From a phage, in sequence record PX393108.1: 64,000 nucleotides of DNA; one strand, 5' to 3'. Every line of letters begins with the position of its first letter. Within the stretch, counting starts at the first letter, position 1. The notes under the pieces were generated by a model. That model had not been told where the DNA came from, did no database searches, and saw nothing but the letters and a program-made list of their open reading frames with translations. Shown piece by piece: positions 3,830 through 47,399 of this stretch. The position numbers were made by a program, and so were the translations under genes.

Positions 3830-5289
3830 AGACCAGTTACCTCATGAAAATCACCAAATACATCCTCGAATGTATTAGCTTTAGTTTTATCTTCACGTAA
3901 ACGAATCGCAATTGGAAGAAATAATTTTACGTAATCAGTGCGGCCATCAGATTTTAGCCAACCGTTGCATTCGCACTCTAGAATTTTTCCAATATAATAA
4001 TTTTGGTTTTCCATAATGCGAGTACGGTCAAGTTCATGCGATTTTACACCGGCTTTATCTTTTAAGCCTGAACCAGCATTTACTTTAATTTTTCCACATT
4101 CTGATTCAAGAATAAATCCACCCGCTTTAGTAGGGTCTTTACGGTGAGGATAAATTCCTACAATTTTTAAATCAACATCAATTACTTCTTTAAATTTATA
4201 GAGATTTTTTGAACGAGCATTTTCCCACAATCCATCGATATTTTTGAGAATAATACCTTCAAGACCTTGGTCAATATATTTTTTATAAATTACCTTAGCT
4301 TCATCTAGGTTATTTACTACCTGGTTTTCAATTAAAATTACTTTATCATAACCTGATGTCATTTGTTCTAGTTTAGAAAAACGTACATCATATTTCAAAC
4401 GAAATGCAGGAAGACCGTATATTTCTACCAACGGGACATAATCCCAGACCTGAAACTTCATGCATTGAGCTTCTTTTTCAGAAATGGTTCCCTTTAAAGA
4501 TTTATTGGCGATGCCATTAGATGCAGTACGTGATTCAGCTACTTCGGCGAATTCTTTAGCTTTACTAATTTCAGGATAAGCATCAAAAAGAAAATCTAGG
4601 CCTTCTGGTTCCTTTTTAACTTGCTCATGGTATACCAATTCGCCATCAATTAACACACCTTCTGGATGAATCTGGCGGGCTTCAGCAGTCATTTTGATTA
4701 ACTCTTCCTTAAGAAGATCTAATCCTAGATATTCATTACCAGCTCGTGATAAAAGACGAACATCATCTAATTCATCGCCTCGGACTTCAGCAAAACACCG
4801 AGCTCCATCTGCTTTTAACTGCGCAAAGGCTGGAAACTTGATATTCTTACTAATGCCTTTTTCATCATAAGAACTTGCCAGCATTTGAGGTTGTTCAGGA
4901 ATTAAACCTGGCCAAACTTTATTTGCAATAGATACTGAAGCACCGCATTCAAGGTCTCGCATCATAACTCGACGCAAAACTTCAACATCATCCTTTTTAC
5001 CATCGGTGATATATCCAATTAATTCCTCAATTGCCGCATTTCCAGTCAATTTCCGAGTAGCTAACGTGAATTCAATGAAGTCAAGCATATCGGTAATAGT
5101 CAGCATTCCAAAACTCTGGGTAGCAATACCAGGTTTAGGCCATTTCTTGATATAATACTGTAACCCACGAGAATAAGTTAGACGATATACTCGTTTAAGC
5201 AATTCATTATCTTTATTCTTTTCAAGAATTGCTTGCTTCTGCTTAGTTGATCCAATAGATGCTATTTCATTCAGAATTTTAAGAATCAT
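3826..5289 (-). CDS. 30: ATP-dependent DNA ligase gp30
   Basis: 487 aa; MILKILNEIASIGSTKQKQAILEKNK... matches T4 DNA ligase as recalled; adenylation motif KADG (FAQLKADGARC). Confidence 0.97.
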   Translation of the reverse strand: MILKILNEIASIGSTKQKQAILEKNKDNELLKRVYRLTYSRGLQYYIKKWPKPGIATQSFGMLTITDMLDFIEFTLATRKLTGNAAIEELIGYITDGKKDDVEVLRRVMMRDLECGASVSIANKVWPGLIPEQPQMLASSYDEKGISKNIKFPAFAQLKADGARCFAEVRGDELDDVRLLSRAGNEYLGLDLLKEELIKMTAEARQIHPEGVLIDGELVYHEQVKKEPEGLDFLFDAYPEISKAKEFAEVAESRTASNGIANKSLKGTISEKEAQCMKFQVWDYVPLVEIYGLPAFRLKYDVRFSKLEQMTSGYDKVILIENQVVNNLDEAKVIYKKYIDQGLEGIILKNIDGLWENARSKNLYKFKEVIDVDLKIVGIYPHRKDPTKAGGFILESECGKIKVNAGSGLKDKAGVKSHELDRTRIMENQNYYIGKILECECNGWLKSDGRTDYVKLFLPIAIRLREDKTKANTFEDVFGDFHEVTGL

Positions 5290-5555
5290 TGTTCATCCTT
5301 CAGAGTTTGATTTACAGCTCTATTATAAATCAATTCATCATTAAGCTCAGTCAAAGACTTATGATATGTAGTTCTAACTTTATTTCCTTGCATCCAGTGC
5401 TTGATATAAATGAAACCTTGCTCTACGCATTTTTTAAAAATTCGTTCGTCTTTTTGAGCTCGGAATTCTGGATTGCATCTAAAAAATTGATTTACGTGAC
5501 CGTAATCACGCGTAGTATTACCTTCATTTTCATAAATAGTGTGAACGACAAACAT
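5286..5555 (-). CDS. hypothetical protein (30.1 position)
   Basis: ORF track, 89 aa; ATGA overlap with the gene 30 start region; synteny. Confidence 0.6.
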   Translation of the reverse strand: MFVVHTIYENEGNTTRDYGHVNQFFRCNPEFRAQKDERIFKKCVEQGFIYIKHWMQGNKVRTTYHKSLTELNDELIYNRAVNQTLKDEQ

Positions 5556-41767: not shown

Positions 41768-41917
41768 TTACTGCATGACTGTGATAACTGTCATGATAAC
41801 ACGTTGAATTCCGAACGCAAGAAGACCTCCTGCTACGGCTGGAACAACACCTAAACCCGCCAGTAAAATGCAACCGGATACTAATGCAGCGCCTGTAATA
41901 CCTATGAATGGACTCAT
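41768..41917 (-). CDS. small hydrophobic membrane peptide (49 aa), coupled to gene 52
   Basis: Hand-translated MSPFIGITGAALVSGCILLAGLGVVPAVAGGLLAFGIQRVIMTVITVMQ; ATG overlaps the gene 52 stop (ATGA). Replaces the implausible track ORF 41643-41873. Confidence 0.45.
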   Translation of the reverse strand: MSPFIGITGAALVSGCILLAGLGVVPAVAGGLLAFGIQRVIMTVITVMQ

Positions 41918-43242
41918 TTGATTTCCTCTAAATCTTTGGTGTATTCTGTAACTACATCAGTAGTTTTCCAATATTCGTTTTCTTCTTTTTTAGCTTTAGC
42001 TTCTTCAGCAAGTTTCTTTGCTTCGTCGGAAGTCATATGAAAAATATTCATTCCGACTAGTTTATCAACATAAGAAGAATACATATCAATTTTAGAAAGT
42101 TCTTCAGTCAGTTCTTTGCGAGTTTTACCCTGTACAACGATTTCACCTGAAATTACTTTCTTAATGAAATGTGCCTTGGCAAAGGCTAAACGAAATGCCG
42201 ATTCAGTTTCTTTGATTTTGTTATCAATTCGTTTTTGGACATAAGTTTTACGAACTTCAACGAAGTCTTTAATTAAATCAACTACGTTATCGTAAACTTG
42301 TAGTTTTCCTTTCTCATTAATAACGGTAATATTCTGGGAACGACGCTCAATCAACCCGAAGTCTTTCATGATTTTTGCATGGCGTTCTTCTTCGTTATCG
42401 CTCAAGGAATATTCTTTACGGAATTTAACTTTGAAGCCAAAACCATGCTCACCGCAAGCATCATCCCACGTAATGAAGCCTTTATCTTCAAGCGGGTCTA
42501 AGATTTTACTCACATAAGTTTCACGATCATACTTATACGGAATCTCAGTGATATTCATTTGAGTTCGTGAGGTAAACTTGTACGTTCCACGAATTTCATA
42601 TTGACCGTCAATTTCAACGACTTCACCGCGAAATTCTGGGAATTCTACCTTCGGTTTAGTTACTTTCTTTCCTTGAAGAGCTTGTAGTACAGCTTTCTTG
42701 ACAGAAGAAACGCTATGAGGAAGAATGTAAGTTGCATAACCAGTTGCAATACCGGAAACACCATTAAGAAGAACGGTAGGAATAATAGGCAAATAGAAAG
42801 CAGGCGGAATGTGTTCTTTATCTTGATGTACCGGAGCATATTCAGTATCTTTATATACGTTATAGAAATTTTTACTTACACGAGCAAAAATATAACGACT
42901 TGCCGCTGCTTTTTGAACAGTACGAGAACCAAAGTTTCCTTGACCATCTAACAAAGGAAAGTTATTATTCCAAGTATTAGCCATCAAAGCCCCCGCATCT
43001 TGCGCAGAGTTTTCGCCATGATGATATCCAAGGTCCGCTACACCGCCTGCAATAGAAGCGAGTTTGTGAAACTTATCTTTATTTCCTCGTGCCAAATCAA
43101 GAGCTCGAGCGATAACAAATCGTTGAACTGGCTTAAATCCATCAATCATATTTGGAATAGCACGATTTTCAACCGTGTACATAGCATAAGCCAGTGCTTC
43201 ATTATCAATGATACTTTTTAAATCGCGATTATTCAGTTGCAT
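41914..43242 (-). CDS. 52: gp52 topoisomerase II medium subunit (GyrA-like)
   Basis: 442 aa; size and position as in T4; putative active-site Tyr region present. Confidence 0.95.
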   Translation of the reverse strand: MQLNNRDLKSIIDNEALAYAMYTVENRAIPNMIDGFKPVQRFVIARALDLARGNKDKFHKLASIAGGVADLGYHHGENSAQDAGALMANTWNNNFPLLDGQGNFGSRTVQKAAASRYIFARVSKNFYNVYKDTEYAPVHQDKEHIPPAFYLPIIPTVLLNGVSGIATGYATYILPHSVSSVKKAVLQALQGKKVTKPKVEFPEFRGEVVEIDGQYEIRGTYKFTSRTQMNITEIPYKYDRETYVSKILDPLEDKGFITWDDACGEHGFGFKVKFRKEYSLSDNEEERHAKIMKDFGLIERRSQNITVINEKGKLQVYDNVVDLIKDFVEVRKTYVQKRIDNKIKETESAFRLAFAKAHFIKKVISGEIVVQGKTRKELTEELSKIDMYSSYVDKLVGMNIFHMTSDEAKKLAEEAKAKKEENEYWKTTDVVTEYTKDLEEIK

Positions 43243-43379
43243 AAATTTACCATACTAGTGAATGTAGTGCCATAATAACATCAGAAATGAAAAGCACGAC
43301 TTGAATTAATCCGAACATTACTCCATAATATAGTGCTATCAATAAAATAGCAAGGGCTAATAAATAGCCCAAGATTTTC

Positions 43380-43538
43380 TTAATCATTAGTAGATAACAA
43401 CACAAATGTTAAATATGCACACATACCCTGAGCTAAAGCTTGTGAAAACACACTGCTAGCATCGATGCAGATAGTTAAAACACATGCTACTATCCAACAA
43501 ATAAATGAAATAACTCCTAATAATTTTGCAATATTCAT
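43380..43538 (-). CDS. ac: Ac (acridine-sensitivity) small membrane protein
   Basis: Hand-translated 52 aa MNIAKLLGVISFICWIVACVLTICIDASSVF...; hydrophobic; position between stp and 52. Confidence 0.55.
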   Translation of the reverse strand: MNIAKLLGVISFICWIVACVLTICIDASSVFSQALAQGMCAYLTFVLLSTND

Positions 43539-43545
43539 ATTTTCC

Positions 43546-43626
43546 TCACTGGCGTCCGAAGACGCCTTTAGTTTTAAGATTGTTACGATAGAACTGCATC
43601 ACGTGTTCGTTATGGAAATTACTCAT
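43546..43626 (-). CDS. stp: Stp peptide (activator of host anticodon nuclease)
   Basis: Hand-translated 26 aa [26 protein letters not shown] matching recalled T4 Stp; TAATG overlap with the ndd stop. Confidence 0.7.
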
Positions 43627-44084
43627 TAGTATGCCTGCAAAACAAATTTAAAGTTATCAGCCAACATACGGTTCATTTCTTCAAGCGTTTGATACTCAGA
43701 ATGATGATTACGAGTAAACGCCAAAGCTAACTGACCTTTTCCAAATCCCGTCGTCAGAGGTTTCATCTTAGAAGCAGGTAAATAAAATACCGTGTATGTA
43801 ACATTGTTATTTGCAATAGTACGCGCAAGCTGAGACCGACGCTGGCGAATATGACTTAGAACTGCACTGAATCCTTGCTTAGAACGCTGATTACCTACAT
43901 AAAATCGTGCAGACACACATGGATTACTAAATAGACGACCATCTAATTTACTTACTAAAAAGTAAAATCCAGGGTTAGACAAAATGTCTTTATGCGGAGT
44001 TCCAAAAACCCATTCACCGCCCTTGATTGTACCAATAACAGTTGCGCCTGCATTATTCAGATCAGTAACAGTCATATATTTCAT
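43626..44084 (-). CDS. ndd: Ndd nucleoid-disruption protein
   Basis: 152 aa from [18 protein letters not shown]... with SD GAGGAAA; the track's upstream ATG lacks an SD. Confidence 0.85.
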
Positions 44085-44144
44085 TTTAATTTCCTCTAAA
44101 TTATTTTCTACTCCAAGGCCGCATGAATACACACGGCCGATAAA

Positions 44145-44360
44145 TTAATCGTCGCAGTCGACGCTCAATTCCCAGAACTCTTCTACGGTATAAGTTTCAG
44201 TATCATTTTCAATACAGAAACGTTCATTGCTGTTATTTGCTAAAGTAGCGTTAACTGTCATTTTCTCGCTAGTGCTCTTAAGAGGTGAAATACGAATTAA
44301 CTGATCACCATTATCTAAACAGAAAATTTCACCAACTTTTACATCTTTAAAAATTTTCAT
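44145..44360 (-). CDS. hypothetical protein (71 aa)
   Basis: ORF track. Confidence 0.5.
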   Translation of the reverse strand: MKIFKDVKVGEIFCLDNGDQLIRISPLKSTSEKMTVNATLANNSNERFCIENDTETYTVEEFWELSVDCDD

Positions 44361-44368
44361 AATTCACC

Positions 44369-44479
44369 TCAAGGAGTATAAAATCCAAATGCAGTTGTTG
44401 ACCATCCCATCCAATATGGGAAATTTGCGCCAATATAAAACATAAGAATATAAAACCAACCGCTCAGCAAATTCATCAT
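44369..44479 (-). CDS. small hydrophobic peptide (36 aa), not in track
   Basis: Hand-translated MMNLLSGWFYILMFYIGANFPYWMGWSTTAFGFYTP; ATGA overlap with the upstream ORF. Confidence 0.35.
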   Translation of the reverse strand: MMNLLSGWFYILMFYIGANFPYWMGWSTTAFGFYTP

Positions 44480-44694
44480 TTTACACCATTCCAAATTGTT
44501 TCAACCACAGATTTTAAGCCATTTTGGTGAATATCCATTCCGACAACTGCCATCAAATAGATTCCAACTACAACTGAACCTAAGGCGAAAATCAACATGA
44601 AAATGAATAAAGCTGGAAAAATATTATCGAAAAACCATTCAATAAATGTAAAAGCACTACGTTTACGCTTCATATTTTCCTCACATAAATCCAA
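44476..44694 (-). CDS. small membrane protein (72 aa)
   Basis: ORF track; hydrophobic helix FPALFIFMLIFALGSVVVGIYLMAVVG. Confidence 0.5.
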   Translation of the reverse strand: MDLCEENMKRKRSAFTFIEWFFDNIFPALFIFMLIFALGSVVVGIYLMAVVGMDIHQNGLKSVVETIWNGVK

Positions 44695-44794
44695 AGTAAG
44701 CGTTTAATACATCAATCATTAAAACGATTGGGAATATACTCAAAACTACTAATATTATAACTACATTCCATATAGCTTTAACAATCTTTTTCAT
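44681..44794 (-). CDS. small membrane peptide (37 aa)
   Basis: MKKIVKAIWNVVIILVVLSIFPIVLMIDVLNAYFGFM from the internal ATG with strong SD GGAGG; the longer track ORF would overlap the promoter. Confidence 0.4.
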   Translation of the reverse strand: MKKIVKAIWNVVIILVVLSIFPIVLMIDVLNAYFGFM

Positions 44795-44822
44795 TTTCTG
44801 TTCCTCCGTAGTTGATAGGGTA

Positions 44823-44852
44823 ATAATACCACAGAGGAACAGTCTTGTAAAC
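44823..44852 (-). promoter_or_regulatory. T4 early-type promoter (-35 GTTTAC, -10 TATTAT)
   Basis: Reverse complement of gtaaac 44847-44852 and ataata 44823-44828. Confidence 0.45.
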
Positions 44853-44859
44853 AACTTTT

Positions 44860-44958
44860 TTAAAAATATTCGTAATAAATGTGAATACCAACTACTACCG
44901 CTGAAACTTGTGCAACCCACCACGCACAAGCAATAAGTACAGAATTCAAAATTTTCAT
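44860..44958 (-). CDS. small hydrophobic peptide (32 aa), not in track
   Basis: Hand-translated MKILNSVLIACAWWVAQVSAVVVGIHIYYEYF; SD GAGGT. Confidence 0.35.
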   Translation of the reverse strand: MKILNSVLIACAWWVAQVSAVVVGIHIYYEYF

Positions 44959-45041
44959 AATAACCTCATCACAAAAGTAAATACTAAACAAATCAATGGA
45001 ATACTAATTAACCAAACAAAACACCACCACAATGAACTCAT
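44955..45041 (-). CDS. small hydrophobic peptide (28 aa), not in track
   Basis: Hand-translated MSSLWWCFVWLISIPLICLVFTFVMRLL; ATGA overlaps at both ends. Confidence 0.3.
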   Translation of the reverse strand: MSSLWWCFVWLISIPLICLVFTFVMRLL

Positions 45042-45310
45042 AGTTCAATCTCAGCGATTTTCATTTCATTACTATTAATAGCCGCTTTAAGACTATCTGA
45101 AAGAATTACATTCCAGTGGTCATTCATATGACCATTAACTAAACGTGTAATTTCTTCGGGAGTTGAAAAATAAGGCGTATCAGACTCCCAATGCGATAGT
45201 CCCAAGCGAGTATAAATCATACCTTCATCATCGCTAGAATATTCAACTGACACAAACTCATCAGTTATTTTATGTTTAGCGTAATAAAATTTAAATTTCA
45301 TTTTACTCAA
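45038..45310 (-). CDS. hypothetical protein (90 aa)
   Basis: ORF track. Confidence 0.5.
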   Translation of the reverse strand: MSKMKFKFYYAKHKITDEFVSVEYSSDDEGMIYTRLGLSHWESDTPYFSTPEEITRLVNGHMNDHWNVILSDSLKAAINSNEMKIAEIEL

Positions 45311-45513
45311 TAATCCGCTAAAAGATCGACGATTGCATCACGAAGACACTTATTCGCAATACGCTTAAGAGCAATTTCAGTTTCTGGAGCATTTTGAATA
45401 ATCATTGAATTCAATTCAGCCTCAGCAAACTGAAGTTCTTTAACTAATTCAGCTTTATATTTTCCTTGCCCTTTCTTAGCTTTTGCTCGTTTTAATTCAG
45501 CTGTAGTAAACAT
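45307..45513 (-). CDS. hypothetical protein (68 aa from internal ATG)
   Basis: MFTTAELKRAKAKKGQGKYK... with SD GGAGAA; the upstream part of the track ORF overlaps the promoter cassette. Confidence 0.45.
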   Translation of the reverse strand: MFTTAELKRAKAKKGQGKYKAELVKELQFAEAELNSMIIQNAPETEIALKRIANKCLRDAIVDLLADY

Positions 45514-45547
45514 TTTGTTCTCCAAATCCGTATCAGTTGATAGTTGT

Positions 45548-45577
45548 ATAGTACCACAGTCCTTGTGGTATGTAAAC
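45548..45577 (-). promoter_or_regulatory. T4 early-type promoter, near-identical cassette copy
   Basis: gatagttgtatagtaccacagtccttgtggtatgtaaaccgttttgtgaaaa is shared with the copy at 24328-24380. Confidence 0.5.
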
Positions 45578-45593
45578 CGTTTTGTGAAAATTT

Positions 45594-46151
45594 TTAAATG
45601 GAAAGATACCATCCGTTGTAGTTGCTTTTTCTTACAACCTTACGAAGGTCTTCTCTATCACCGATGAACTTCGGAGTGTACTGGATGACACCTGGATGAA
45701 TTTCTTTAGTGTTGAATATAATTATACAGTCAGCGACCTGATGATTCAGAATGGGCCCTAGATTTATTCCAGAACCGTATGGATACTCTCCGCTGCATCC
45801 GGTTGTTACCGAAATCCAGCGTGAGTCAGTTTGGTGTGTTTTGACTTCTACACGAAGCCCGCAATATCTTGGATGCGCCAATACATCCCATGCATATGTA
45901 TACGGGTCATTAACATCCTCTTGGCCTTTGTTAACATACCCGCTCAACCAATCTGCTACAAAAAACTCTGCATACACAGCGATACGGCATCTTTCGATGA
46001 CTTCTGCTTTATCCTGATTAGGATTTTGTTTTAAAGAGTATCTTGCTGTATCAGCAATTTTGACCTTCATTTCACTAGTCAAGTCATTGTTCGATAGGGT
46101 AAATGTCGGAATCTGAAATAGTCTCTGTAAACCCGGATTCGTTTTCTGCAT
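45594..46151 (-). CDS. denB: endonuclease IV
   Basis: 185 aa; size and position next to rIIB as in T4. Confidence 0.85.
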   Translation of the reverse strand: MQKTNPGLQRLFQIPTFTLSNNDLTSEMKVKIADTARYSLKQNPNQDKAEVIERCRIAVYAEFFVADWLSGYVNKGQEDVNDPYTYAWDVLAHPRYCGLRVEVKTHQTDSRWISVTTGCSGEYPYGSGINLGPILNHQVADCIIIFNTKEIHPGVIQYTPKFIGDREDLRKVVRKSNYNGWYLSI

Positions 46152-46217
46152 TGAACTTTCCTTTTACGTCGGAATCACTGATATTCATACAATAAATCAT
46201 AGTTTCCCTTAAAACAA

Positions 46218-46233
46218 AAGGGCCGAAGCCCTT
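46218..46233 (-). other. UUCG hairpin (AAGGGC-UUCG-GCCCUU)
   Basis: Perfect stem/loop between denB and the 64-aa ORF. Confidence 0.45.
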
Positions 46234-46237
46234 TATT

Positions 46238-46432
46238 TTATTTGAACTGTGCAATTCTTTTCTCTAAACAATCCGCGTAAGATTTCATTGAGATGAACTG
46301 CGAAAGCAACAGTTCTTGCTCAACTGCATTAACCGTTGAAAACTTTTCACTTTCTAAAAATTTGCTCAGTGCATTAATTTTGAGCATTAATTGATCGTAT
46401 TCTTCTTTTACTCGTGCTTGATAACCTAACAT
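46238..46432 (-). CDS. hypothetical protein (64 aa)
   Basis: ORF track; SD AAGGAAAA follows an upstream hairpin. Confidence 0.5.
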   Translation of the reverse strand: MLGYQARVKEEYDQLMLKINALSKFLESEKFSTVNAVEQELLLSQFISMKSYADCLEKRIAQFK

Positions 46433-46446
46433 AATTTTCCTTAGTT

Positions 46447-46462
46447 AAGGGCCGAAGCCCTT
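46447..46462 (-). other. UUCG hairpin (AAGGGC-UUCG-GCCCUU) at the rIIB 3' end
   Basis: Second near-identical copy of the 46218 hairpin, immediately 5' of the next SD. Confidence 0.45.
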
Positions 46463-47399
46463 ATTTAAATTGTTCAGTAACGTCTTCAACTACTTCGTAT
46501 TGGCAGGTACGCATTTTAGCATCGTTGTAATCAATCGGAATTGATACTACATCGCGAGGATGTACTTTAACTTTTACAACTCGGCTGGTTGAACTGCCAA
46601 AGTGACGAATATAAGATTTAGAACACACGTGCAGACCGCGAGAACAAGTTTGTGTATCATCGTCATTCACACGAGTACGTGGCATTTTAACTACTTTACC
46701 AGGGCTGTTATCAAAGGTATTTGAGTGACAGTCAAAGTAATTGCTGCGAACTACTTTCCAAGCATAGAAGTAGCCGTCTTCTGTAATTTCAATATCGTTT
46801 GCTACCAAGAAATCAAAGAGTCGAGATACCGCTTTTTGGCTCGGGTTTTCCAACAGATTTTCCAAGAACGGAAAATAAAATTCAAAGTTTTCGCCTTTTT
46901 CCATCGAATCGAGAATACGATCAACTAAACCAGACCGCAATTCAATATTTTGATAGAACAAGCTTCCACCTTCAATTCGAACATCACCGGAAATATATTT
47001 TTCAACAGCGCGCCGAACGTTAATTTTTTGCGCTGCTTCTTCCAATTTATCTGCAACAAGCAGATTAAGAATTTCTTGGAAGTTTGAATGAGTATTAGGA
47101 GTTGCGTTATAAGTTACGCCGTCAACGGTAATTGAAATGAATTTTTTAGATGCATTCCAAATAATGTCAGATTTAGCAACTGGAGCAATAGCTGCATCGC
47201 TCTTAACTGTAACTGTAATGTCACCGCTAATGGTAACTTTGGAACGCTCAGCTTCTTCAGCATTTTTCAAAACACGACGGATTGTGTCAACCGATACACC
47301 TTGCCAATCAGCCAATTCCTGTTGAGTGTAATTACCACTTGAATACAGTTTGACAATTTCAGCTTGTTCGTTTTTGGTCAGGCATTTAATATTGTACAT
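46461..47399 (-). CDS. rIIB: rIIB membrane-associated protein
   Basis: 312 aa; MYNIKCLTKNEQAEIVKLYSSGNYTQQELADWQGVSVDTIRR... matches recalled T4 rIIB. Confidence 0.95.
   Translation of the reverse strand: MYNIKCLTKNEQAEIVKLYSSGNYTQQELADWQGVSVDTIRRVLKNAEEAERSKVTISGDITVTVKSDAAIAPVAKSDIIWNASKKFISITVDGVTYNATPNTHSNFQEILNLLVADKLEEAAQKINVRRAVEKYISGDVRIEGGSLFYQNIELRSGLVDRILDSMEKGENFEFYFPFLENLLENPSQKAVSRLFDFLVANDIEITEDGYFYAWKVVRSNYFDCHSNTFDNSPGKVVKMPRTRVNDDDTQTCSRGLHVCSKSYIRHFGSSTSRVVKVKVHPRDVVSIPIDYNDAKMRTCQYEVVEDVTEQFK

Follow-up and report, generated by a model that had tools for sequence, protein, structure and literature searches.

A T4-type set of five small genes, very probably encoding single-pass inner-membrane proteins, between denB and ndd of a Tequatrovirus

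The closest described counterpart of the locus reported here is the interval between denB and ndd of phage T4, in which ndd.2 to ndd.6 are already annotated as hypothetical genes. These genes are dispensable in laboratory conditions. Phage with the saΔ9 deletion, which lacks everything from 52.1 through denB, is viable with a burst of about 50% (PMC6071114), and CRISPRi-ART knockdowns of ndd.1 to ndd.6 were all scored 'Not Fit', meaning that no fitness requirement was detected (PMC11879866 supplement). The T4 mRNAs of ndd.2 to ndd.6 were classed as early by RNA-seq, and the product of the neighboring ndd.1 was detected as an early protein in T4 proteomics (PMC9697503 supplement). Our search of the literature returned region-level statements only, with no published function for ndd.2 to ndd.6, ndd.2a, DUF7248, PF23906 or phrog_2401.

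In this study, we analyzed a 64,000-nt stretch of DNA (the window) from a Tequatrovirus that is distinct from T4 and whose best database match is 98.4% identical. An earlier note on this DNA had pointed to five small ORFs at 44369-44479, 44476-44694, 44681-44794, 44860-44958 and 44955-45041. All are present at these coordinates on the minus strand, with raw sizes of 36 aa, 72 aa (from a TTG), 37 aa, 32 aa and 28 aa, in ascending coordinate order. Taking synteny, protein identity, family membership, coding evidence and hydropathy together, we are highly confident of one joint claim: the five ORFs are the T4-type set ndd.6, ndd.5, ndd.4, a 65-aa DUF7248 gene and ndd.2, and they are genuine genes for single-pass inner-membrane proteins of 28-65 residues. 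They are thus a rediscovery of annotated hypothetical genes.

The order and strand of the genes between denB and ndd are identical in the window and in T4 (ndd.6, ndd.5, ndd.4, ndd.3/2a, ndd.2, ndd.1), and T4 (NC_000866 T4p270-T4p275; T4T HM137666 T4Tp273-277) also has them in the same position, with the same PHROG families, early promoters and overlaps. By tblastn, the T4 products are matched at 93% identity by ndd.6, 100% by ndd.5, 92% by ndd.4, 98% by the 65-aa ORF and 97% by ndd.2. The five were assigned to phrog_8851 (ndd.6), phrog_5011 (ndd.5), phrog_3098 (ndd.4), phrog_2401 (the DUF7248 gene) and phrog_4135 (ndd.2); for ndd.2, ndd.2a and ndd.4 these agree with the T4 assignments in the PMC11879866 supplement, where T4 ndd.3 is given as a singleton. 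About 490 Tequatrovirus records contain DNA of the interval, 94-98% identical.

Unlike T4, the window phage carries two soluble cassette genes between denB and ndd.6, both on the minus strand and outside the five. The 68-aa orf68 (45307..45513, phrog_4535) occupies this position in 3 of 20 close relatives, the window counted among them, and in another relative a homologue of it stands in place of orf87. The 87-aa orf87 (45038..45301, phrog_2390), of which T4 has only a 34-nt remnant, ends in a stop codon that overlaps the ndd.6 start as ATGA. There follow ndd.6 (44955..45041, minus strand, 28 aa), whose family alignment shows the conserved motif WC..W...IP.IC..F; ndd.5 (44860..44958, minus strand, 32 aa), with a GAGG Shine-Dalgarno sequence and an ATGA overlap with ndd.6, a family seen in Tequatrovirus only; and ndd.4 (44681..44794, minus strand, 37 aa), with a GGAGG Shine-Dalgarno sequence, the N-terminus MKKIVK and an Asp28 that is invariant across the family alignment. 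The DUF7248 gene (44476..44673, minus strand, 65 aa) and the aromatic-rich ndd.2 (44369..44479, minus strand, 36 aa, or 35 aa from a second ATG at 44476), with the motif G..N.PYW.GW, complete the set. The downstream cistron in the same early transcription unit is ndd.1 (44145..44360, minus strand), which encodes a soluble protein of 71 aa.

Examination of the start codons altered several features of the initial reading. The 72-codon size given to the ORF at 44476-44694 had to be revised, as its real start is the ATG at 44673, preceded by a GAGG Shine-Dalgarno sequence 7 nt upstream and yielding 65 aa; a 198-nt CDS is called at this locus in nearly all annotated relatives. With this start, an apparent 14-nt overlap with the ORF at 44681-44794 vanishes and leaves a 7-nt spacer instead. 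The ORFs had also been described as a chain linked by ATGA-type overlaps, which we observed at 44476-44479 and 44955-44958 and not at the other junctions among the five; a third such overlap, at 45038-45041, joins ndd.6 to the upstream 87-aa ORF, and a 65-nt spacer bearing a promoter separates 44794 from 44860. The first ATG of the 36-aa ndd.2 ORF is ATA in 6 of 20 relatives, indicating that the second ATG, at 44476 (35 aa), is the conserved start; here the start of ndd.2 and the stop of the DUF7248 gene overlap as ATGATG. A nearby peptide, reported as 49 aa and coupled to gene 52, turned out to be 52.1, which is 46 aa from its ATG and lies 4 nt away from gene 52, with no overlap.

The 65-aa gene also bears on the T4 reference annotation. 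Its product matches Pfam DUF7248 (PF23906) at 71.9 bits against a cutoff of 27, with residues 6-63 aligned to model positions 4-57 of 58, and phrog_2401 covers its full length. The gene matches T4 DNA as one continuous frame by tblastn, and corresponds to 'ndd.3' plus 'ndd.2a' of T4. In the T4 reference, a 1-nt deletion at about position 166,624 of NC_000866 divides it into an out-of-frame ndd.3 of 26 aa and an ndd.2a of 40 aa. This deletion occurs in X75802, AF158101 and NC_000866 only, among 493 matching records; the additional base is present in re-sequenced T4 genomes, and an intact 65-aa ORF is annotated in T4T and OZ209023. The label 'periplasmic protein' attached to phrog_2401 derives from the truncated T4 ndd.2a, whose TM segment resembles a signal peptide. 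The reference ndd.4, at 42 aa, likewise differs from the gene in the window, using a T4-specific upstream ATG located within the Shine-Dalgarno sequence. The T4 reference (ndd.2a, ndd.3 and the 42-aa ndd.4), which is in wide use, misdescribes two genes, and genome-wide screens built on it, such as guide libraries, aim at an ndd.3 that does not exist and at an ndd.2a that is cut short.

The DUF7248 protein has a basic N-terminus, a TM segment at residues 18-36 inside a long helix (19-51), a kink at Gly52 and the conserved C-terminal tail GLKSVVETIWNG; G52, K54, W61 and G63 are invariant in DUF7248 alignments. An AF2 model (pLDDT 87) likewise has a long helix and a short one, separated by a kink at a Gly. 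The basic N-terminus, the single TM segment and the GLKSVVE.IWNG tail are common to the Pfam and PHROG families and to the 65-aa ORF, in which the tail pattern G-L-K-x-V-x-E-x-I/V-W-x-G follows the TM segment, and no feature sets this ORF apart from the Pfam family. A protein homology search reached close relatives only. An exhaustive DUF7248 profile search yielded 27 representatives, all of them small DUF7248-like proteins except four tape-measure proteins, and among these 27 there was no fusion to an informative domain.

To provide a chance baseline for the ORFs, we generated 2000 dinucleotide-preserving shuffles of the 673 bases and scored the sense strand. At least five ATG ORFs of at least 28 aa arose in 0.85% of the shuffles and at least four TM-like ORFs in 0.05%, and none of the 2000 reached an ORF coverage of at least 89%. 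The earlier note had named loss of the frames in close relatives as evidence against its proposal, and the frames proved to be intact in 19 (ndd.6, the DUF7248 gene and ndd.2) or all 20 (ndd.5 and ndd.4) of 20 relatives. Pooled pN/pS, computed as a simple consensus-based tally without phylogeny correction over relatives picked partly for divergence, was 0.13 in frame (62 synonymous vs 31 nonsynonymous changes, p=3e-22); the two shifted frames gave 1.20 and 1.16. By gene, the same tally gave 0.19 for ndd.6, 0.12 for ndd.5 (p=3e-4), 0.07 for the DUF7248 gene (p=3.5e-13) and 0.11 for ndd.2 (p=8.5e-7). For ndd.4 alone it was 0.50, from 9 substitutions only, and the synonymous excess was not significant among close relatives; support for ndd.4 as a coding gene comes from its conservation across genera.

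This conservation extends well beyond Tequatrovirus. Four of the families recur between denB and ndd, their order unchanged, in distant T4-like phages, where family-specific invariant residues are kept at 30-60% identity. Over 39 loci the order ndd.6, ndd.4, DUF7248, ndd.2 is kept, with the sole exception of one locus in which ndd.2 comes before DUF7248. The most widely conserved family of the set is ndd.4, present in 34 of the 39 loci, and it precedes DUF7248 in 20 of 21, either directly upstream or one gene removed. The conserved ordered trio of ndd.4, DUF7248 and ndd.2 may work together.

Hydropathy (Kyte-Doolittle, 19-residue window) was used to call TM segments. The claim of one TM-like helix per ORF stood for four of the five, with a strong single segment in ndd.6 (residues 7-25, 2.57), ndd.5 (residues 7-25, 2.17), ndd.4 (residues 11-29, 3.05) and the DUF7248 protein (range over the four, 2.17-3.05), and these are predicted to be integral single-pass inner-membrane proteins. 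The 36-aa ndd.2 is borderline; its maximum of 1.17 is below the usual threshold, and some orthologues reach 1.6-1.9. By the positive-inside rule, the N-termini of ndd.4, ndd.5 and DUF7248 are predicted to be cytoplasmic, so that the conserved C-terminal helix of DUF7248 would face the periplasm; for ndd.6 the prediction is N-out. A natural in-frame hybrid in phage Sf25, which joins the ndd.4 TM segment to the DUF7248 tail, implies that ndd.4 and DUF7248 have the same orientation. Frame conservation, purifying selection, synteny and predicted TM helices thus uphold the earlier proposal of membrane-targeted micro-protein genes in an early host-takeover region.

A promoter scan placed two early promoters in the region, both on the minus strand. 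A sigma-70-type promoter, TTTACA-17-TACTAT (45548..45576), lies before the orf68, orf87, ndd.6 and ndd.5 cistrons and is conserved in 20 of 20 relatives. The other, TTTACA-17-TATTAT with a TG before the -10 hexamer (44823..44851), divides the five-ORF chain and would drive ndd.4 through ndd.1 onward; window positions 44790-44856 share 89.6% identity with the region between nrdC.9 and nrdC.8 of T4, in which the -10 and -35 are annotated at equivalent positions. Both promoters match TTTACW-N17-TAYWAT, the consensus of the PeSL promoters of T4 and PST (PMC4122927), and each has a Shine-Dalgarno sequence and a start codon downstream. As in the PeSL cassettes of T4-like hyperplastic regions (Arbiol 2010; Comeau 2014, PMC4122927), the orf68/orf87 indels end at a promoter/Shine-Dalgarno/start element, and among the 20 relatives cassette indels are located at promoters; an exchange of ndd.4/.5 between T4 and PST is cited in Fig. 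6A of PMC4122927. PeSL cassettes also have an upstream stem-loop, whereas a terminator scan gave no adjacent hairpin at either window promoter, and only weak 4-bp pairings were seen by eye.

In the arrangement we propose, the five genes would be transcribed immediately after infection from the promoters at 45576-45548 and 44851-44823, on polycistronic messages predicted to continue into ndd.1, ndd, stp, ac, 52.1 and gene 52. Every cistron has its own Shine-Dalgarno sequence, and three starts would in addition be coupled to the preceding stop codon via ATGA or ATGATG overlaps. The peptides would then bind larger host or phage inner-membrane proteins, helix to helix, as bacterial small membrane proteins do, and thereby adjust an envelope function of importance on certain hosts or in certain conditions only. 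Conditional tuning of this kind would account for the accessory status of the genes, their hyperplastic location and their shuffling as promoter-bounded cassettes. By analogy, we regard helix-to-helix binding in general as a real possibility that falls somewhat short of an even chance, and any specific target of the peptides as unlikely at best; profile libraries, homology searches and literature searches yielded neither an interaction partner nor a phenotype, nor a homologue whose function is known. A more elaborate model, which we hold to be improbable, would make ndd.4, DUF7248 and ndd.2 three subunits of one Straboviridae inner-membrane micro-protein complex, in which the periplasmic DUF7248 tail, resembling a single tape-measure repeat, is the working end. 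Such a complex would control an early envelope process, with stimulation of phosphatidylglycerol (PG) synthesis or a block on genome entry by competing phages as candidates.

Other readings of the locus compete with helix-to-helix binding. That the ORFs are not functional proteins at all, being either chance ORFs of a T-rich sense strand or translated spacers and leader ORFs that hold ribosomes on early mRNA, would fit a sense strand that is 41% T and so favors hydrophobic codons, the knockdowns without phenotype and the lack of the proteins from mass spectrometry data. In the T4 infection proteome none of the five was detected (protein class NA, PMC9697503 supplement), as is expected of tiny hydrophobic peptides, and we found no relevant T4 ribosome-profiling or small-protein study in the literature. 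In addition, T4 retains an 8-codon remnant ORF, MKIAEIEL, solely as a coupling position upstream of ndd.6, which shows that coupling itself is preserved. Against this stand strong amino-acid-level purifying selection limited to these frames, motifs conserved across genera at 30-60% identity, the shuffle test and the individual Shine-Dalgarno sequences. The shuffle test and the codon-position pattern of substitutions led us to reject chance ORFs, and the reading as a whole, already disfavored, is very improbable indeed. An RNA gene was rejected because Rfam, searched with both strands of 43000-46500, gave nothing at E≤1, and a holin or small membrane lysis protein on the early transcripts, the early promoters and neighbors (denB and ndd) other than lysis genes. 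A role in lipid metabolism has a phenotype to draw on: one or more of the peptides would cause T4's early stimulation of PG synthesis by acting on a membrane-bound phospholipid enzyme of the host or on the regulator of that enzyme. The saΔ9 phage, without 52.1, ac, stp, ndd, ndd.1-ndd.6 and denB, loses the post-infection stimulation of phospholipid synthesis (Kutter et al., PMC6071114), the partly overlapping deletion rIIΔDD2 is also without PG stimulation, and the same authors note that several products of the region are predicted membrane proteins. Earlier work, as cited there, ascribed the effect to a protein synthesized in the first 5 minutes after infection, with which the early timing of ndd.2–ndd.6 agrees. 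The mapping, however, rests on a deletion of about 3.4 kb and about 13 genes, in which denB, ndd, ac or 52.1 could just as well be responsible; PMC6071114 allows for an indirect effect on lipids and cites one older study that saw no PG stimulation, and the peptides have no homology to lipid enzyme regulators in Pfam or NCBIfam. We therefore consider a lipid role a long shot.

The location of the genes lends itself to readings in terms of phage-host and phage-phage conflict. As counter-defense or host-range factors, the peptides would neutralize or trigger membrane-associated defense or abortive-infection effectors of some strains only, in keeping with their accessory nature and dispensability on laboratory strains, their patchy presence between genera, their hyperplastic, promoter-shuffled location, thought to house adaptive host-range genes (PMC4122927), and neighbors (stp, the rII genes and ndd) that all act in phage-host conflict. 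This support is purely circumstantial, however. The only PADLOC match, to KwaA (E=0.0085 over one TM stretch), is at chance level and was rejected, as was a glutamate-cysteine ligase match in NCBIfam (E=0.25), and in its main text the HIDEN-SEQ transposon study of T4 reports conditionally essential genes without any ndd.x among them; a counter-defense role thus seems to us rather improbable. The earlier note had suggested host-takeover or superinfection-exclusion functions, for which we found no assignment in the literature and no match to Imm, Sp or defense-related profiles. For exclusion, one or more of the peptides, seated in the inner membrane, would stop the entry of secondary-phage DNA, and the periplasmic DUF7248 tail would touch the incoming tail or tape-measure protein. 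Small early inner-membrane exclusion proteins provide precedents: Imm of T4 binds gp29, the tape-measure protein (bioRxiv 10.64898/2026.03.06.709160), and exclusion by HK97 gp15, a small protein of the inner membrane, depends on the incoming phage's tail region (PMC3594210). The DUF7248 tail, GLKSVVETIWNGVK, is also close to a siphovirus tape-measure repeat unit, such as AIKTAIETVWNGIK, with matches in four proteins of 820-976 aa (5-10 stretches each, E 1.6e-6 to 3e-4); seven related-locus matches had the same score pattern, and the single one inspected sits in a 1516-aa tape-measure-like ORF. Yet the repeat-bearing tape-measure proteins come overwhelmingly from phages of Gram-positive hosts (Lactococcus, Staphylococcus, Streptococcus, Actinobacteria) and not from coliphages, so the resemblance is more likely convergent, probably a Trp-containing amphipathic helix, and we set it aside as functional evidence. 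Nor did we find a sequence relationship to Imm or Sp, an exclusion family in Pfam, PHROGs, NCBIfam or PADLOC, or, in the literature, an exclusion phenotype mapped to this interval, and the role is already filled in T4 by Imm and Sp. Superinfection exclusion is accordingly quite improbable in our estimation.

In itself, the rediscovery of annotated hypothetical genes alters little. The genes ndd.2–ndd.6 are among many conserved and selected T4 early genes that are without a function after sixty years of T4 genetics, and the ndd.4-DUF7248-ndd.2 trio offers a small, concrete target set for the PG-stimulation phenotype mapped to saΔ9.

Set beside known small membrane proteins, the five peptides resemble T4 Imm and HK97 gp15 in being small phage-encoded inner-membrane proteins, and Imm is also expressed early. 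Imm, however, has several helices, whereas the peptides have one TM segment each, and with no sequence similarity the analogy is functional only. Bacterial small membrane regulators include AcrZ, MgtS, MgrB and SgrT. The peptides are phage-encoded, expressed only in infection and without homology to these regulators, but are like them in size (30-65 aa), in having a single TM segment and in having no enzymatic domain, and the mode of action that the two groups would be expected to share is the binding of larger membrane proteins.

The five small hydrophobic ORFs on the minus strand between ndd and denB (44369-45041) are real, selected and early-transcribed genes for predicted single-pass membrane proteins. 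All were present exactly where the earlier note had placed them: ndd.6 (44955-45041, 28 aa), ndd.5 (44860-44958, 32 aa), ndd.4 (44681-44794, 37 aa), a DUF7248 gene ending at 44476, and ndd.2 (44369-44479, 36 aa). When the 673 bases were shuffled 2000 times with dinucleotide content kept, counting sense-strand ORFs that start with ATG and encode 28 aa or more gave a mean of 1.6 ORFs covering 27% of the sequence, against the five ORFs and 89% coverage observed. Five or more such ORFs arose in 0.85% of shuffles, four or more transmembrane (TM)-like ORFs in 0.05%, and coverage as high as that observed in 0 of 2000.

Some details of the earlier description changed. For the ORF first given 72 codons, nearly every annotated relative uses the ATG at 44673, with GAGG upstream, as the start, and the product is 65 aa; the supposed overlap with the 37-aa ORF therefore becomes a 7-nt spacer. 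The proposed chain of ATGA overlaps held at 44476-44479 and 44955-44958, but is interrupted by this spacer and by a 65-nt, promoter-containing spacer between 44794 and 44860; a third ATGA overlap (45038-45041) joins orf87, a soluble upstream gene, to ndd.6. Six of 20 relatives have ATA in place of the first ATG of ndd.2, and the next codon is therefore the conserved start. A TM-like helix had been described in every ORF; hydropathy gave a clear single TM segment in four, but the fifth, ndd.2, is aromatic-rich and sub-threshold.

The 1.55 kb around the ORF set matched 509 phage records, the top one being Escherichia phage 236Ecol005PP at 98.4%. The region belongs to a member of Tequatrovirus, a T4-like myovirus, and, given this best match, the window is therefore from a phage other than T4 itself. 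In the same interval the T4 reference record lists ndd.2, ndd.2a, ndd.3, ndd.4, ndd.5 and ndd.6, labelled "hypothetical predicted membrane/periplasmic proteins", whose products are 92-100% identical to those of the window. A PHROG family was found for each of the five products, and the 65-aa product belongs over its full length to Pfam DUF7248 (71.9 bits; cutoff 27). The ORFs are thus orthologues of T4 ndd.2-ndd.6, one of them a DUF7248 protein, by membership and not by mere likeness. These genes are already known: they are annotated in T4 and hundreds of relatives, and their laboratory dispensability is on record.

Two T4 annotations differ from those of the relatives. In the T4 reference, codon 2 of the 65-aa gene lacks 1 nt (window 44668-44673; T4 locus 5049-5129; ATGAAGCGT to ATGAACGT), and this deletion produced two annotated genes: ndd.3, of 26 aa, which is out of frame and a PHROG singleton, and ndd.2a, of 40 aa, from Met26. 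Among 493 matching records, an exact match to the deleted sequence is confined to X75802, AF158101 and NC_000866, and the extra base is present in re-sequenced T4 genomes (T4T, KJ477684/5, OZ209023/57). The deletion is probably a sequencing error of the 1990s reference, and it is still carried into guide-library and omics tables. The 42-aa T4 ndd.4 owes its start to a C-to-T change, specific to T4, that made an ATG within the GGAGG Shine-Dalgarno (SD) sequence (window 44795-44812; T4 locus 5252-5265); T4T and every relative start at the conserved ATG further downstream (37 aa).

Genes run on the minus strand throughout from gene 52 (41914-43242), 52.1, ac and stp (43546-43626) through ndd, ndd.1 (44145-44360) and the five ORFs to soluble orf87 (45038-45301; 87 aa, phrog_2390), soluble orf68 (45307-45513; 68 aa, phrog_4535), denB (45594-46151), denB.1 and rIIB. 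The two best-scoring sigma-70-like promoters of a scan of the interval, TTTACA-17-TATTAT (44851-44823, minus strand) and TTTACA-17-TACTAT (45576-45548, minus strand), both fit TTTACW-N17-TAYWAT, the consensus of T4/PST early promoters in "PeSL" elements (Comeau et al., PMC4122927). The T4 nrdC.9/nrdC.8 intergenic region shares 89.6% identity with window 44790-44856, and its annotated -35/-10 signals lie at positions equivalent to those of the window promoter. SD-like sequences precede ndd.4 (GGAGG), ndd.5 and the 65-aa gene (both GAGG); those of ndd.6 and ndd.2 are weaker, and both starts overlap the preceding stop. In T4, time-resolved RNA-seq places ndd.2 to ndd.6 in the early class, and mass spectrometry detected Ndd and Ndd.1 but not the ndd.2-ndd.6 proteins (PMC9697503 supplement). 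Neither strand of 43000-46500 matched an Rfam family at E≤1. In the 44100-44163 region, a terminator-like hairpin at the ndd.1 3' end (CGTCGACTGCGACG, then a T-rich run) is accompanied by a second inverted repeat in the ndd.1-ndd spacer (GGCCGTGTGTATTCATGCGGCC); either might attenuate read-through into ndd.

The earlier note had named lack of frame conservation in close relatives as a refuting result; the frames proved to be conserved. Each was intact in 19 or 20 of 20 aligned Tequatrovirus sequences, which comprised the window, T4, six further loci and twelve records picked down to 94% identity. Both ndd.5 and ndd.4 were intact in all 20; the single exceptions were a 2-nt insertion within the final codons of ndd.6 in a metagenomic contig, the T4 reference copy of the 65-aa gene, and a 5-nt insertion in ndd.2 of phage ECO4. 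One phage starts ndd.6 with GTG, and another carries an additional Trp in frame. Substitutions cluster at third codon positions. By a simple tally against the consensus, uncorrected for phylogeny, in-frame pN/pS was 0.07 for the 65-aa gene (p = 3.5e-13), 0.11 for ndd.2 (p = 8.5e-7), 0.12 for ndd.5 (p = 3e-4), 0.19 for ndd.6 (p = 0.004), 0.50 for ndd.4 (not significant; 9 substitutions) and 0.13 for the five genes pooled (p = 3e-22), against 1.20 and 1.16 in the two shifted frames.

Beyond the genus, Ndd served as an anchor to fetch 36 IMG/VR loci (Ndd 47-97% identical). Between denB and ndd lie 280 to about 2300 nt, in which the same small families recur in the same order. The ndd.4 family occurs in 34 of 39 loci, DUF7248 in 21, ndd.2 in 17 and ndd.6 in at least 14 (about 20 by tblastn); across these 39, ndd.5 was found in Tequatrovirus only. 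An ndd.4 homologue lies upstream of DUF7248 in 20 of the 21 loci, next to it or with one gene between (two in locus L024), and is frameshifted in the remaining one. This constant order and co-occurrence suggests that ndd.4, DUF7248 and ndd.2 share a joint function. Invariant residues are Asp28 in ndd.4; G6, G16, N18, Y21, W22 and G24 in ndd.2; W6, C7, W10, I14, P15, I17, C18, F21 and L28 in ndd.6; and, in DUF7248, G52, L53, K54 and G63 among ten phage-locus sequences or G52, K54, W61 and G63, inside GLKSVVE.IWNG, among 25. Among 1.84 billion cluster representatives, an exhaustive DUF7248 profile search found only 27 matches at E≤1e-3, and the family is therefore small; nearly all were 47-76-aa proteins of the same architecture, with no informative domain fusion among them.

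In several distant T4-like phages a soluble 41-48-aa ORF is inserted in or beside the ndd.4/DUF7248/ndd.2 trio (L024 2762-2899, L025 3780-3905, L032 2901-3047, L007 2944-3090); some versions have CxxC...C motifs and resemble zinc ribbons. In one lineage (L020, L028, L035 3841-3930) an unrelated 29-aa TM peptide, MKRHIVYRLLALGLLVFWVGGVTAVVYFW, occupies the ndd.2 position 3' of DUF7248, its start overlapping the DUF7248 stop as that of ndd.2 does, so the slot is conserved and its content replaced.

Upstream of ndd.6, orf68 and orf87 are variable cassettes. At its window position orf68 is found in only 3 of 20 close relatives, with a 94% identical copy in the distant RB69-like locus L032, and orf87 has two strongly diverged alleles. 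Their indels end at the promoter/SD/ATG element, a likeness to the PeSL shuffling model. T4 lacks the 87-aa ORF and keeps its last 34 nt (T4 locus 5497-5535, minus strand; window 45038-45064), fused behind the promoter's SD as an 8-codon mini-ORF, MKIAEIEL. An ATGA overlap still links its stop to the start of ndd.6; the deletion therefore kept translational coupling to ndd.6.

An AlphaFold2 model of the DUF7248 protein (25 sequences; pLDDT 87) has a helix at 5-17, a long helix at 19-51 that includes the TM segment, a break at invariant Gly52, and a short helix at 53-62 built from the conserved motif. By the positive-inside rule its N-terminus, MKRKRS, would be cytoplasmic, so the conserved tail would be periplasmic. 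The same orientation would be predicted for ndd.4 (MKKIVK...) and ndd.5 (MK...), and the opposite for ndd.6, with an uncharged N-terminus and Arg/Lys near its C-terminus. Shigella phage Sf25 gp120 is a natural in-frame deletion hybrid joining the ndd.4 N-terminus and TM segment to the DUF7248 tail, consistent with a common orientation. Its precomputed Pfam list gives PF26889 and PF23906, and the Pfam copy we used reported no ndd.4 family, which suggests that the newer PF26889 covers ndd.4. The tail, GLKSVVETIWNGVK (window 44476-44520), is close to a single unit of the repeats in siphovirus tape-measure proteins (for example AIKTAIETVWNGIK, present in 9-10 copies); locus L065 (218-4768) is among the sequences that show the likeness. 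Most of these proteins come from phages of Gram-positive hosts (Lactococcus, Staphylococcus, Streptococcus, Actinobacteria), which makes convergence the more probable origin of the similarity.

We found no paper treating any of ndd.2-ndd.6 individually. Of deletions that span the region, saΔ9, which lacks 52.1, ac, stp, ndd, ndd.1-ndd.6 and denB, remains viable, with the burst cut by about half (PMC6071114). In CRISPRi-ART, none of the knockdowns of ndd.1 to ndd.6 showed a fitness requirement in the laboratory host, all being scored "Not Fit" (PMC11879866 supplement). The genes thus count as accessory. In saΔ9 the post-infection stimulation of phospholipid synthesis, notably of phosphatidylglycerol (PG), is abolished, and PG stimulation is likewise lost in the overlapping deletion rIIΔDD2 (PMC6071114). 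With so many genes removed together, we consider it unlikely that the peptides stimulate PG synthesis. The earlier note had named host takeover or superinfection exclusion as candidate functions; we give exclusion by these peptides little credence, and counter-defence has a similarly slim chance. We favor a role in which the products would be inserted in the inner membrane during the first minutes after infection and may bind larger membrane proteins, as bacterial small membrane proteins do, thereby tuning an envelope function of importance only with certain hosts or in certain conditions. A sequence relationship to Imm or HK97 gp15 was not found, so the resemblance of the ndd.2-ndd.6 products to these proteins is one of functional analogy only.
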